From NCBI GenBank assembly GCA_039815185.1, contig JBCBZT010000076.1, positions 1 through 27,553 of the forward strand: a stretch of 27,553 bases of DNA. The letters are read 5' to 3'. Below the pieces are notes generated by a model. The model saw nothing but the letters and a program-made list of their open reading frames with translations, was not told where the DNA came from and made no database searches. This DNA comes from Cyanobacteria bacterium P01_A01_bin.123. Lineage in GTDB: Bacteria; Cyanobacteriota; Cyanobacteriia; Phormidesmidales; Phormidesmidaceae. A program made the translations under genes and the position numbers. This document shows, in pieces, positions 9,238-12,399 of the stretch (position 1 is the stretch's first letter; each line of letters begins with the position of its first letter).

Positions 9238-9309
9238 TGGGCAATACTGGGATCGAACCAGTGACCTCTTCCGTGTGAAGGAAGCGCGCTACCCCTGTGC
9301 TAATTGCCC
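9238..9309 (-). tRNA. trnV: tRNA-Val (anticodon CAC)
   Basis: GGGCAATTAGCACAGGGGTAGCGCGCTTCCTTCACACGGAAGAGGTCACTGGTTCGATCCCAGTATTGCCCA folds into a full cloverleaf with GGTTCGA T-loop. Confidence 0.97.
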
Positions 9310-9438
9310 TAGGTATGGGTTTCAGCCTTCGCCGTTTACTTTATGCCGTAATTTATGCGTAAGTCGCCGAAAACTCTCCCATCATGATTCCGTACGTTTT
9401 AGTAAGACTCTTACTATAACGGAAAATGAGGAGAGAGA

Positions 9439-9858
9439 TTACTGCTTGAGATTAGTAATACAATTTGTATTACTCCATGGAATAAAGGGGTAGTCTTCAT
9501 GTAGCCGAAGGATTTCTGACTCCTGCTCCTCATCCTCCCAAACGGCATCCACGATTTCGTCAAGCCAATGGGACATCCACATAACGACTTCATCCTTCAT
9601 GTGATTAATGAGGTACTCCTTAGGCTCTCCAGTCTCCTCTAGAACGGCTCTGTAGTTCTCGAATATGAGCTTGCAGGAGTCAAATACCTCATCGAACATG
9701 GGACAGACCAGATGGAAGCGTGGGTGCCACTCAGGCATCTTCTCAACGGGCCAGTTCTCCAGTGCTTCTCTGTCGTAATCAATCATTTCAGCTATTCCTT
9801 GCGCGTCGTTTTTGGATCGTACAATCCAATTAATTTCTAGCTTGCTGTACGGAATCAT
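9439..9858 (-). CDS. Acidic hypothetical protein (139 aa)
   Basis: Long ORF divergent from the SprT-like gene. ATG 9858 preferred; start uncertain. Confidence 0.65.
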   Translation of the reverse strand: MIPYSKLEINWIVRSKNDAQGIAEMIDYDREALENWPVEKMPEWHPRFHLVCPMFDEVFDSCKLIFENYRAVLEETGEPKEYLINHMKDEVVMWMSHWLDEIVDAVWEDEEQESEILRLHEDYPFIPWSNTNCITNLKQ

Positions 9859-10301
9859 GCAATGAGTATTTATGCTTAATCTGCAATGCGATCGCGCTAA
9901 ACACCTATGGATAGACAGAAAAAAGGGGCGCCCGTCATTGGGCACCCGTGGATTGTACGATCCAAAGAAATAACTGAGGCTTCAGTATAACGCTTCCTCG
10001 CCCTTGTTTTTTTGGATTGTACAATCCAAATTTTTGGATTGGATCCAAAATCATCTGCAAACTTTAGCTCGAATAGTTAACTTATCCAGTTGCAATCATT
10101 GGCTCAAAACGGCTATACCTCAAGGCTTTTAGGGCGTTTCCACCCTCCCTCCCATTTTTGGATTGTATGTTCCAATCTTTTTGGATAGTACTATCCAAAC
10201 CAGGGGTGATAGTCTATTTTTAGAAATTGGATGGTACCTTCCAATAAAAATGGATTGTACGATCCAAAGGTGCTATTCTTTGTTTGGATTGTACAGAACA
10301 A
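9812..10301. repeat. Array of eight 18-bp palindromes, consensus TTGGATTGTACAATCCAA
   Basis: Copies start at 9812, 9948, 10012, 10158, 10181, 10227, 10250 and 10284, plus a shortened copy at 10034. Confidence 0.9.
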
Positions 10302-10317
10302 AGGATATTGATGAAGG

Positions 10318-10998
10318 ATGGAGAGAGAGATAGATGATGAAGTCTACCAATGGTGGAAGAAACTACATGAGTTTCTAGACCTAGTTCTATTCCTAGAGCT
10401 ACTAGGTAAGAACTTACCAAGGAACTGCTTAGTTCAGTTCTCTAGCAGGTCGATTGATGGGCACTTCGCTCCATATTCAGGCACTAGGCCAAGCTCAAAG
10501 GAAAAGGTACATTACATAGGATTAAACAGTGAAATCTTCCACGAGGAACCTGCTTATTACTTTGGGGTGATAGTCAGGATGATGTGCCACCTATATCAAT
10601 TTGAACATGGGAAGCCAGGAAGAAAAATGTACGTCAACAAGGAGCTATCGAAGATGATGCAGACGGTAGGGATTAAGCCCGTTAATCTTGATGACCGAGA
10701 AAAGCGAACTGGAGAGAAAATGACTCAGGAGGTAATCTCAGGCGGCAAACTGGATGCTGTGCTGTCGATCATGGAGAGCAAGTTCCCTCCACCAATTCTT
10801 CCTCAGTACGTAACCTCTGAAGAAGAGCGAAAGAAGAGCAACAAGAAGCTCTACCAGTGCCCTGAATGCGGGAAGAAGATGTATGGTAACAAGTCAGGTG
10901 AAACCCTATTTTGCGGCGATTGCGCTCAAAAACAGATGGATAAATCCACCCTGGAGAAGCTTGAAAAAGTGAGGATGATTGAGCTTAAATCAAAGTAA
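10318..10998 (+). CDS. SprT-like protein with degenerate metalloprotease motif and C-terminal zinc ribbon
   Basis: IGLN..F...IVRMMCHLYQFEHGKPGR..YVNKELSKMMQTVGIKP...TGEKMTQ follows the SprT-like pattern; CPEC..CGDC ribbon. Confidence 0.72.
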   Translation: MEREIDDEVYQWWKKLHEFLDLVLFLELLGKNLPRNCLVQFSSRSIDGHFAPYSGTRPSSKEKVHYIGLNSEIFHEEPAYYFGVIVRMMCHLYQFEHGKPGRKMYVNKELSKMMQTVGIKPVNLDDREKRTGEKMTQEVISGGKLDAVLSIMESKFPPPILPQYVTSEEERKKSNKKLYQCPECGKKMYGNKSGETLFCGDCAQKQMDKSTLEKLEKVRMIELKSK

Positions 10999-11100
10999 TA
11001 CAAATTGTATTACAACTCAGGATGAGTGATTGACCTGGGAAGAACATGCCTGACTTTTTATCTCCTTTCAAAAGTCTTAGTAAGAGTTATAGTAAGAATA

Positions 11101-11139
11101 AAAAAGGGGGAGAAGGATTTAACTCCAACTCCCCTTTTT
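11101..11139. terminator. Bidirectional intrinsic terminator between the SprT-like gene and int2
   Basis: AAAAAGGGGGAG...CTCCCCTTTTT. Confidence 0.65.
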
Positions 11140-11195
11140 GAACCCCGTAGAACTCACCCTATTTCTGGTCTTAATAAGAGTCTTACTAAAACCAG

Positions 11196-12242
11196 TTAGA
11201 AGAGATTATCAGGTAATTCAATCTCCTTCACCAATCCAGTGTAATGGCGAATGCATGTATCTGGACGATTACCCAGCAGGGCGGCTACTTCAATGATTGT
11301 GAGTCCATTCTTGAGGCAGTGAGATGCGAATGTATGTCTGAGATTATACGGCTTCCTGTAGCGGACTCCCGCTACTTTAAGCTTGGGTTTCCACACTCGC
11401 CCATTGAAGTCATTGTCATTCACGAAGGCACCCTTAGGCCCACGAAAGATGAGTTCTGAATCATCTGTTGGATTAAGGCGATCGCGCCTCTGCAAAAGCT
11501 TATCCCTAAGGACTGAATGCATAGGGATTACACGGCTTTTACCTGTTTTTGTACCCTTAAATGCCCTGGTGCTAGAACGGCCCTTGAGACGAGCTAGCGC
11601 GAAGCTTACACGAATGTTTGATTCAGTAAAACTGACATTCTCCCATTTGATACCAATAGCCTCCGATGTGCGACAGCCTGTGTAGAGCAGGAAGTAGTAA
11701 AAATCCTCCCAGTAGTCCCCCTCAAACTGTTCAGTGATTAGCTGAACCTCGTGAGCGGTGAATGGGTCAATCTGAGTCCTAGTCTCCTTTGGTTGCTTGA
11801 TACCTTCAAATAACCTAGGAGCGACACCCCTGAGCACAGTCATATACCGCCGCTTACTGTTATTGGAGCCCCCAATAGACTTCCAAAAGCGATTAGCTTG
11901 CCCTTTCGTTTTGATTGCACCCTTTTCAGCTTCGTATGCTTCCACTTTACGCAGGACACCCGCCTCAGCAGCCCCCCATTTGCGTTCTAGACGATTTCTA
12001 AGGGCTTCACCCAACGATTCACCTGATGACGCCTTCCAGGACGATAAATCGATGAATGAGCCGTCATTTATCGACTGCTGAATCTCTAACGCGATGATTT
12101 GAGCTTTCGTATAGTCAGTCGGGTTATCCCATGAACCCAACTTACCCATGCTGTGATTCACACCTTCATGCTGGAAGCGGATTAGAATTCGCCCATTATT
12201 GTTCTTTAGATTGATAGTTTTCACTACCTTGCGCTCTCCCAT
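11196..12242 (-). CDS. Tyrosine recombinase/integrase 2
   Basis: GCRTSE (R), KTGK (K), RKPYNLRHTFAS (R-H), RHYTG (Y). Confidence 0.93.
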   Translation of the reverse strand: MGERKVVKTINLKNNNGRILIRFQHEGVNHSMGKLGSWDNPTDYTKAQIIALEIQQSINDGSFIDLSSWKASSGESLGEALRNRLERKWGAAEAGVLRKVEAYEAEKGAIKTKGQANRFWKSIGGSNNSKRRYMTVLRGVAPRLFEGIKQPKETRTQIDPFTAHEVQLITEQFEGDYWEDFYYFLLYTGCRTSEAIGIKWENVSFTESNIRVSFALARLKGRSSTRAFKGTKTGKSRVIPMHSVLRDKLLQRRDRLNPTDDSELIFRGPKGAFVNDNDFNGRVWKPKLKVAGVRYRKPYNLRHTFASHCLKNGLTIIEVAALLGNRPDTCIRHYTGLVKEIELPDNLF

Positions 12243-12321
12243 TTTATGAGAGCGAAGGCTTTAGGTATTAGCCAGTAGTAATAAGACTCTTATTACAAAG
12301 TAGAATTCGCTACCAAAACTG

Positions 12322-12360
12322 CCGTGTGAAGGAAGCGCGCTACCCCTGTGCTAATTGCCC
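12322..12360 (-). pseudogene. 5'-half fragment of tRNA-Val(CAC) (att copy)
   Basis: Identical to tRNA nt 1-39, ending just past the anticodon loop. Confidence 0.9.
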
Positions 12361-12370
12361 TAGGCCAACC

Positions 12371-12399
12371 AATCTAGCACGGTCATAAGGGCAGTGCAA
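12371..12399 (-). promoter_or_regulatory. Probable native tRNA promoter
   Basis: Minus strand TTGCAC, 17 bp, (TGC)TAGATT, 10 nt upstream of the tRNA 5' fragment. Confidence 0.6.

Follow-up and report, generated by a model that had tools for sequence, protein, structure and literature searches.

Integration of a small element into a cyanobacterial tRNA-Val(CAC) gene may swap the promoters of the tRNA and the integrase

Introduction

Which promoter transcribes a tRNA gene whose 5′ half has been supplied by an integrated element, and which one then serves the integrase? The question is raised by a stretch of 27,553 nucleotides (nt), here called the window, which is contig C18 of the source genome G000 (Cyanobacteria bacterium P01_A01_bin.123; 8.1 Mb, 133 contigs, 6% contamination). 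The sole tRNA gene of the window detected by ARAGORN, tRNA-Val(CAC) on the minus strand, lies at one end of a small element that encodes the tyrosine integrase Int2. A sequence-only reading of this DNA had suggested that integration may silence or re-regulate the tRNA, which would make excision a switch. We arrived at another interpretation, a reciprocal promoter swap, in which the host promoter would be passed to int2, with damped output, and the rebuilt tRNA would be transcribed weakly, possibly under repression by Int, from an element arm or by read-through from the cargo. On balance, we think this probable. In our best reading the swap is not a designed silencing of the tRNA.

The int2 element duplicates the tRNA gene's 5′ half

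The longest exact repeat comprised 43 bp (Table 1; BLAST E 1.9e-15 in the 8.1-Mb genome) and, just as the sequence-only reading had stated, it corresponds to nt 1-39 of tRNA-Val(CAC) plus four upstream nt (nt -4 to 39), i.e. the 5′ half of the gene is duplicated. Such a duplication is less rare than that reading had implied, as a 5′ tDNA fragment is listed for 159 of 3,919 islands by Islander (PMC4383910, Table 1). The attachment (att) repeats enclose 3,051 bp with a GC content of 43.9%, compared to 52.2% on the radC side. The intact tRNA is situated at one end of this int2 element and the 5′ fragment at the other, both in the same orientation and the fragment upstream. A second copy of the element was not found in the source genome.

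The int2 gene is whole and begins approximately 98 nt from the att repeat. Its frame is open, its PF00589 match lies above the cut-off, and the residues R191, K232, R302 and Y334 (numbered from the ATG) are invariant among nine aligned sequences. The start had been placed at ATG 12242. We believe that translation probably starts at GTG 12224, because the database protein has 342 amino acids (aa), homologues begin at this position and a Shine-Dalgarno-like site (GGAGAG) is located upstream. In a FastTree phylogeny Int2 grouped with tRNA-adjacent cyanobacterial integrases. Close relatives with genomic context were not found: the best genomic matches reached about 35% identity, and matches at 40-42% identity are known as proteins without DNA context.

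Features speaking for a decayed remnant or an assembly artefact are the length of only 3 kb, a degenerate SprT motif in the cargo and the lack of replication and transfer genes (no conjugation or relaxase gene was found among the open reading frames (ORFs) of 9314-12321 by Pfam and PHROG scans), together with the number of contigs and the contamination of the assembly. Against this, the int2 frame is open with conserved catalytic residues, the att repeats are perfect and the layout recurs in three other genomes. Moreover, a near-identical element (99.8%, 7 differences in about 3,070 bases) was present in run X2, a second sample of the same study. We judge a remnant or artefact very improbable.

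Five sequencing runs were listed, none of them of RNA; four were compared, all in the form of contigs, and X1 may represent the source sample. A junction between the att repeats was not seen in these contigs, where it would not be expected to appear. In run X2 the depth of the int2 element was about 7, that of radC about 24, and no contig matched int1, the integrase gene of a neighboring prophage described below. In run X3, which stems from a strain about 98% identical, the sequence following nt 40 of the tRNA 5′ half is a different one, and the match of one contig to the window is limited to 9284-9325, beyond which it diverges (as judged from contigs, with a likeness of 88%). This pattern suggests another 5′-type element at the same site and is taken as a lead only.

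The native tRNA promoter faces int2

On the radC side, the 5′ fragment is preceded by the hexamers TTGCAC (12399-12394) and TAGATT (12376-12371) with a spacer of 17 nt and an extended -10 region (TG-C-TAGATT), the latter hexamer ending 10 nt ahead of the fragment. The sequence-only reading had taken these hexamers for the native promoter, and the comparison with relatives agrees. In G001, a genome of the same genus with an empty site, radC is followed by the identical two hexamers at equal spacing and then by the intact tRNA; intact Val(CAC) genes were located behind radC in 5 of 19 radC loci of relatives. Therefore, the radC side is native and the DNA from 9314 onward belongs to the element. 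Native upstream sequence at 9314-9400 would have refuted the sequence-only reading, and this check did not refute it. Since the empty site of G001 possesses the same promoter, it is the native promoter that now faces int2.

Because a generic sigma-70 scan detected neither this promoter nor any site on the opposite (far) arm of the element, a genome-trained matrix was adopted. It was built from 38 of the 59 tRNA upstream regions of the genome, with arrays, operon-internal genes and this gene excluded, and its p values refer to random genome windows. The matrix is blunt: in leave-one-out scoring the native promoters had a median of 7.3 bits, 12 of 38 reached at most 5.8 and only one at most 3.0. 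The radC-side promoter scored 10.9 bits (p 0.003).

On the integrase-side arm no promoter of int2's own was found (score 3.6, p 0.44), and no terminator was called between the host promoter and int2. Read-through into int2 is thus plausible: the host promoter would transcribe the 5′ fragment and continue toward the integrase gene. The output is predicted to be damped by a hairpin with a 7-bp stem, which covers the ribosome-site-like GGAGAG, and by Int arm sites within the leader. The leader folds at z -3.4, a value that DNA palindromes serving as protein sites would give likewise. Folding of the int leader back on the tRNA 5′ end was tried as a general feature and rejected, as it was significant in one of the four cases with this layout (G380), with p 0.087 for the window, and in 2 of 59 classical controls. 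Inverted copies of the tRNA 5′ end were observed after the att core in L058 (19163-19150; G380) and L029 (1408-1381). Within the int leader such a copy could form a duplex with the 5′ half; it was significant in G380 and L029/L068 and is not general.

A prophage occupies the same tRNA gene from the 3′ side

That the complete tRNA lies behind element DNA had been recognized correctly for its 5′ side, but a prophage on its 3′ side, encoding int1, had been overlooked. Further left of int1, xis-like, repressor-like and antirepressor-like genes are situated. A displaced 3′ fragment of the tRNA (nt 26-72) was identified on contig C10 (G000:C10:53291-53243). It is preceded by GCTATAAA repeats resembling those beside int1, and phage head genes including a head maturation protease lie ahead of it. 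Therefore, the int1 element is a classical 3′-duplicating prophage. Orientation and motifs suggest that C18 and C10 join. The T-loop of the C10 fragment reads TTCGAAC as in G001, that of the window tRNA TTCGATC. Beyond its tRNA, G001 has DNA unlike that which follows the fragment on C10, so G001 does not confirm the C10 flank; in run X3 a C10-like flank was present at chromosome depth.

The duplications of the two elements overlap solely over nt 26-39, the anticodon arm, and thus both integrases most likely cross over in the anticodon loop (9273-9279). The int2 element, a small, non-autonomous element composed of int2, a degenerate SprT-like gene and an orphan ORF, would recombine there from one side, and the second, independent prophage would use the same loop from the 3′ side. 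The 3′ half probably came from the int1 prophage, and the intact tRNA, which has element DNA on either side, would combine two halves that were both brought in by elements. Both halves carry the A5-T68 acceptor pair; of the other Val(CAC) copies compared, only that of G001 has it. The arm-like repeats are element-specific and occur at both ends of each element.

Three side observations concern this locus. A 17-bp palindrome, TA(G/A)TAAGAnTCTTA(C/T)TA, resides at window positions 9400, 11172 and 12279 and at G000:C10:53326; with one mismatch allowed it has four matches in the genome, confined to the vicinity of the att ends of both elements, and is possibly a site for an accessory factor common to them. 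Directly downstream of the displaced 3′ fragment a truncated integrase remnant was found (L021 9717-10169; G000:C10), a putative third, older element at tRNA-Val(CAC). The int1 prophage itself contains an IS605-family TnpB/Cas12f-like gene (window 6145-7467; Pfam).

The layout recurs in other cyanobacteria

The same layout was found in three other cyanobacteria, G380 (Ala-GGC, in an island of 38 kb), G479 (also Ala-GGC) and G534 (Val-GAC, about 14 kb). All four cases target Val or Ala isoacceptors of four-codon boxes, and classical 3′-type elements use these isoacceptors as well. Within the family, 103 of 173 genomes matched the Val(CAC) 5′ half, five of them twice, and a 5′ fragment exists only in the source genome. 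Apparent fragments in G106 and G116 turned out to be contig ends, and the double matches in G086, G154, G173 and G185 are two full-length copies. Val(CAC) 3′ fragments were present in at least 16 other genomes among the matches listed, and the three that were inspected all lie inside contigs. For Ala(GGC), 241 of 401 genomes matched; seven of the 241 had two 5′ matches, six being 5′-type islands. In G299, which gave two pattern matches, only an intact gene and a 3′ fragment were found.

Integrase loci with a match (236 of 241) were sorted by the nearest tRNA; the counts include duplicates, and four loci were reclassified by hand. A 5′ fragment followed by a co-oriented int was seen in four loci (the source genome, G380, G479 and G534), and in 17 the int gene is divergent and upstream of an intact tRNA. 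The remainder comprised 146 3′-type layouts, 66 loci without a tRNA within 480 nt and three others. In the FastTree phylogeny of 167 sequences, from which fragments below 300 aa, sequences above 450 aa, duplicates and weak tRNA-less matches had been excluded, 5′-type integrases occupied at least four places, and Int2 and the G380/G479 pair were not sisters. Phage integrases of 520-540 aa on the viral contigs L266, L268 and L270-L274, divergent and upstream of an intact tRNA-Ala, are probably further 5′-type cases outside cyanobacteria.

Transcription of the rebuilt tRNA

Upstream of the rebuilt tRNA the matrix scores were at background, 3.0 bits within 70 nt (p 0.53) and 5.8 bits within 200 nt (p 0.46), and the earlier statement that no comparable promoter is visible there held true. 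On this far arm, the GCATAAA repeats are overlapped by GCGACT-16-CATAAA, a degenerate counterpart of the TTGACT-17-CATACT that relatives possess at this position; the homology was judged by eye, since MAFFT did not align the site in register. In G380 and G479 the latter site spans the repeat TTGCATAAACTTGCATA, lies 66-67 nt ahead of the tRNA and scored 7.7 bits, about the native median. Their int-side arms harbor the same repeat with the promoter bases replaced (TTCATG..CATACG or ..CATAGA). Furthermore, all six islands with a divergent integrase of which both ends were seen exhibit a promoter-like site of 7.0-11.6 bits at most 70 nt from the rebuilt tRNA, and four of them obtain it by duplicating the host promoter. 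Thus, we concluded that 5′-type elements generally re-supply a promoter. The window copy would then be an outlier, or it relies on read-through from an orphan 115-aa ORF located 130 nt upstream and pointing into the tRNA. This ORF belongs to no Pfam or PHROG family; as no terminator was called between it and the tRNA, it is a possible source of read-through.

The sequence-only reading considered silencing a possible effect of the element: the rebuilt tRNA would have no working promoter, and Val(CAC) would be off while the element is integrated and restored only by excision. The background scores of the far arm are in line with this, as is the finding that Val(CAC) had no match in several genera of the family (g4 0/22, g7 0/3, g8 0/2, g9 0/3). 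The tRNAs Val(TAC) and Val(GAC) are present in the source genome, and U34 reads GUG. The claim that Val(CAC) is dispensable is supported for this family by these data, and its loss would be tolerated because tRNA-Val(UAC) reads GUG. The target choice at Val and Ala four-codon boxes in four of four cases also fits, and Salmonella valVW and alaWX deletions are described as viable and slow-growing (10.1101/2024.04.04.588050, as far as the available text goes). On the other hand, classical 3′-type elements use the same isoacceptors, and the targets chosen are therefore no specific sign of a switch. Among the Val codons of long ORFs, GTG is the most frequent (41,157 of 113,203; 36%), and the loss of Val(CAC) may therefore carry a cost. 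Outside the anticodon arm, the element has also retained 29 nt of 5′ sequence that are identical to the host and not required for recombination, relatives carry promoter-like sites on their arms, read-through from the 115-aa ORF is unblocked, and a score of 5.8 or less is shared by 12 of the 38 native promoters. Full silencing with a switch of this kind is in our opinion unlikely.

The bluntness of the matrix, which misses many real promoters, would also agree with a third explanation, a 5′-type island with an unrecognized but adequate promoter or sufficient read-through, normal tRNA levels and merely incidental transcription of int2. At the far arm the hexamers TAAATT and TAAAGT occur, which match -10 boxes that native promoters of Val(CAC) have in L007, L015 and L018, and the scattering of 5′-type integrases over the tree suggests repeated, unselected changes of orientation. 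Both hexamers, however, lack a -35 region and an extended TG, and int2 without a promoter of its own would depend on host read-through as its main source while integrated. We doubt that neutral restoration of this kind accounts for the locus.

Our preferred interpretation remains the promoter swap. Since the element carries the tRNA's 5′ half, integration would exchange the promoters, and the rebuilt tRNA would be transcribed from the element arm, which in the excised circle would drive int2, or by read-through from the 115-aa ORF. Two relatives have a recognizable arm promoter, whereas the present one is degenerate, and the level of Val(CAC) is therefore probably reduced but not zero. Several results weigh against this proposal. 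Besides the background scores of the far arm, its value of 3.0 bits is below 37 of the 38 native leave-one-out scores, and an extended -10 region alone gave p 0.58. The arm promoter of G380 and G479 is not significant by itself (p 0.17 in 200 nt), and these two genomes belong to the same family and have sister integrases. The far arm of G534 disclosed no clear promoter-like site (6.5 bits, p 0.33). No excisionase was identified among the ORFs of the int2 element. Finally, recent capture or gene conversion, rather than selection, could explain why the 5′ half is exactly identical.

A further step, which we put forward only tentatively and think rather unlikely, is a circuit recurring in cyanobacteria that places a host tRNA under the control of an integrase: Int would be produced from the host tRNA promoter and, once attached to its arm sites, would repress the promoter of the element that drives the rebuilt tRNA. 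If so, the supply of one isoacceptor (here that for GUG) would depend on the integrase level and the excision state, and the recombination machinery of a mobile element would by itself suffice to tune translation in the host. Otherwise, the element is an ordinary member of a 4% class, at an anticodon loop that accepts two elements from opposite sides. With its 3 kb and the sister cases it offers a small, testable system.

Cargo and further features of the window

The SprT-like protein of the element shows a degenerate metalloprotease motif. HExxH is the zinc motif of metalloproteases; here HEMCH is changed to RMMCH and YHN to YVN, by which HExxH and the third zinc ligand are lost. The protein is probably an inactive pseudo-protease. 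The cluster of TGGATnGTACnATCCA palindromes (Table 1) is unique in the genome, and no helix-turn-helix gene resides within the element. A 19-bp palindrome present exactly twice in the genome (9455-9473 and 10995-11013) lies inverted at the 3′ ends of the cargo genes, and a 40-nt inverted pair (9396-9435 / 11153-11192) flanks the cargo, which may thus form a cassette that can be exchanged or inverted. A variant in run X2 diverges directly after 9420.

Table 1. Positions of the two elements and of their attachment and promoter regions in the window
Feature	Position	Strand	Basis and remarks
int1, tyrosine integrase of the classical 3′-duplicating prophage	7898..9052	-	Pfam, PHROG
Arm of the int1 prophage, (G/A)CTATAAA repeats	9053..9237	-	same repeats beside the 3′ fragment on C10
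Rebuilt tRNA-Val(CAC)	9238..9309	-	ARAGORN; anticodon loop 9273-9279
Far att repeat of the int2 element, tRNA 5′ half supplied by the element	9271..9313	-	43-bp exact repeat
Element arm ahead of the rebuilt tRNA	9314..9420	-	arm-like GCATAAA repeats 9339-9359, palindrome 9400-9416, degenerate promoter-like site
Orphan ORF directed toward the tRNA, 115 aa with ATG start (168 aa with GTG 9945)	9439..9786	-	
Clustered operator-like palindromes TGGATnGTACnATCCA (6-7 copies) separating the two divergent cargo genes	9813..10303	.	
SprT-like protein, C-terminal Zn ribbon	10318..10998	+	atlas score 0.97; alignment of 9 of 150 listed homologues
int2, tyrosine integrase of 342 aa with GTG start (348 aa with ATG 12242)	11196..12224	-	PF00589 E 3.4e-16; phrog_1; alignment
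Integrase-side arm and int2 leader	12225..12321	-	palindrome 12279-12295, arm-like CATAAA repeat, hairpin 12232-12254
Host-side att repeat of the int2 element, native 5′ half (tRNA nt -4 to 39)	12322..12364	-	43-bp exact repeat
Native tRNA-Val(CAC) promoter, now before the 5′ fragment and int2	12371..12399	-	sequence; G001; matrix score

Elsewhere in the window, a low-GC ORF of 959 aa (24661-27540) contains an eCIS core domain and a below-cut-off ADP-ribosyltransferase-like match, and looks like a secreted-effector-type gene. A tandem duplication of about 3.1 kb (15433-24174) encodes two 810-aa proteins with 171-nt repeats and comes after a glycosyltransferase/TPR-like gene, labels that stem from reading the sequence and not from a family scan. 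An array of about 16 tRNA genes is located at G000:C96:89969-91837.

Comparison with known systems

The int2 element and the 5′ class of Islander (PMC4383910) have in common a tyrosine integrase, a tRNA target, a 5′ fragment upstream of the restored, co-oriented gene and an anticodon-centered site. The element falls within the 2-200 kb length criterion of Islander, and its empty site is found in the relative G001. In the available portion of the Islander text promoters are not treated, whereas here the native promoter faces int and the tRNA is shared with a 3′-type prophage. The island lists of the Islander database could already include G380-like cases. Pelagiphages of the HTVC019P type also restore the 5′ end of a bacterial tRNA gene (bioRxiv 10.1101/410191); they are full SAR11 phages, and the word "promoter" does not occur in the accessible part of that text. 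The accessible parts of PMC9897764 and PMC13626063 hold nothing on 5′-type promoters.

In pTN3-like integrases of Thermococcales the att site likewise covers the 5′ half and the tRNA is cut from its own promoter; expression of the rebuilt tRNA is attributed to the promoter of the integrase, and according to a review citing Williams 2002 the arrangement is seldom met in bacteria (PMC8371274, PMC5495485, in the sections available). The 5′-half att site and the separation of the tRNA from its own promoter are common to both systems. The pTN3-like elements, however, are archaeal and suicidal, with att inside int and a split int gene, whereas Int2 is bacterial, whole and accompanied by arm-like sites. 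The literature searched, whose coverage extended neither to Williams 2002 nor to the 2020 TIGER paper, contained no measurement of rebuilt-tRNA expression in bacteria. Each ingredient of the arrangement is already known; the bacterial combination and the use of one anticodon loop from two sides were not found in this literature.

A precedent for repression by an integrase is intS of KplE1, where arm-type sites of the integrase over the promoter beside a tRNA att site lead to negative autoregulation (PMC2951348, as far as accessible). In KplE1 the promoter under repression is that of int; the corresponding promoter of G380 and G479, and possibly that of the window, would serve the tRNA as long as the element stays integrated. 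Integrated ICEKp1, ICEclc and ICEEc1 use the host tRNA promoter for int, with leader stem-loops that damp it, and their circles use a promoter of the far end (PMC13023037, in the portion available). These elements are of the 3′ type, and the tRNA keeps and shares its promoter, whereas here it loses its own and would inherit that of the far end. The ICEKp1 layout at the 3′ end is displayed by int1 and not by int2, which is preceded by the 5′ fragment only. As judged from its geometry, the int2 locus would nevertheless fit an ICEKp1-like transcription of the integrase gene from the host tRNA promoter.

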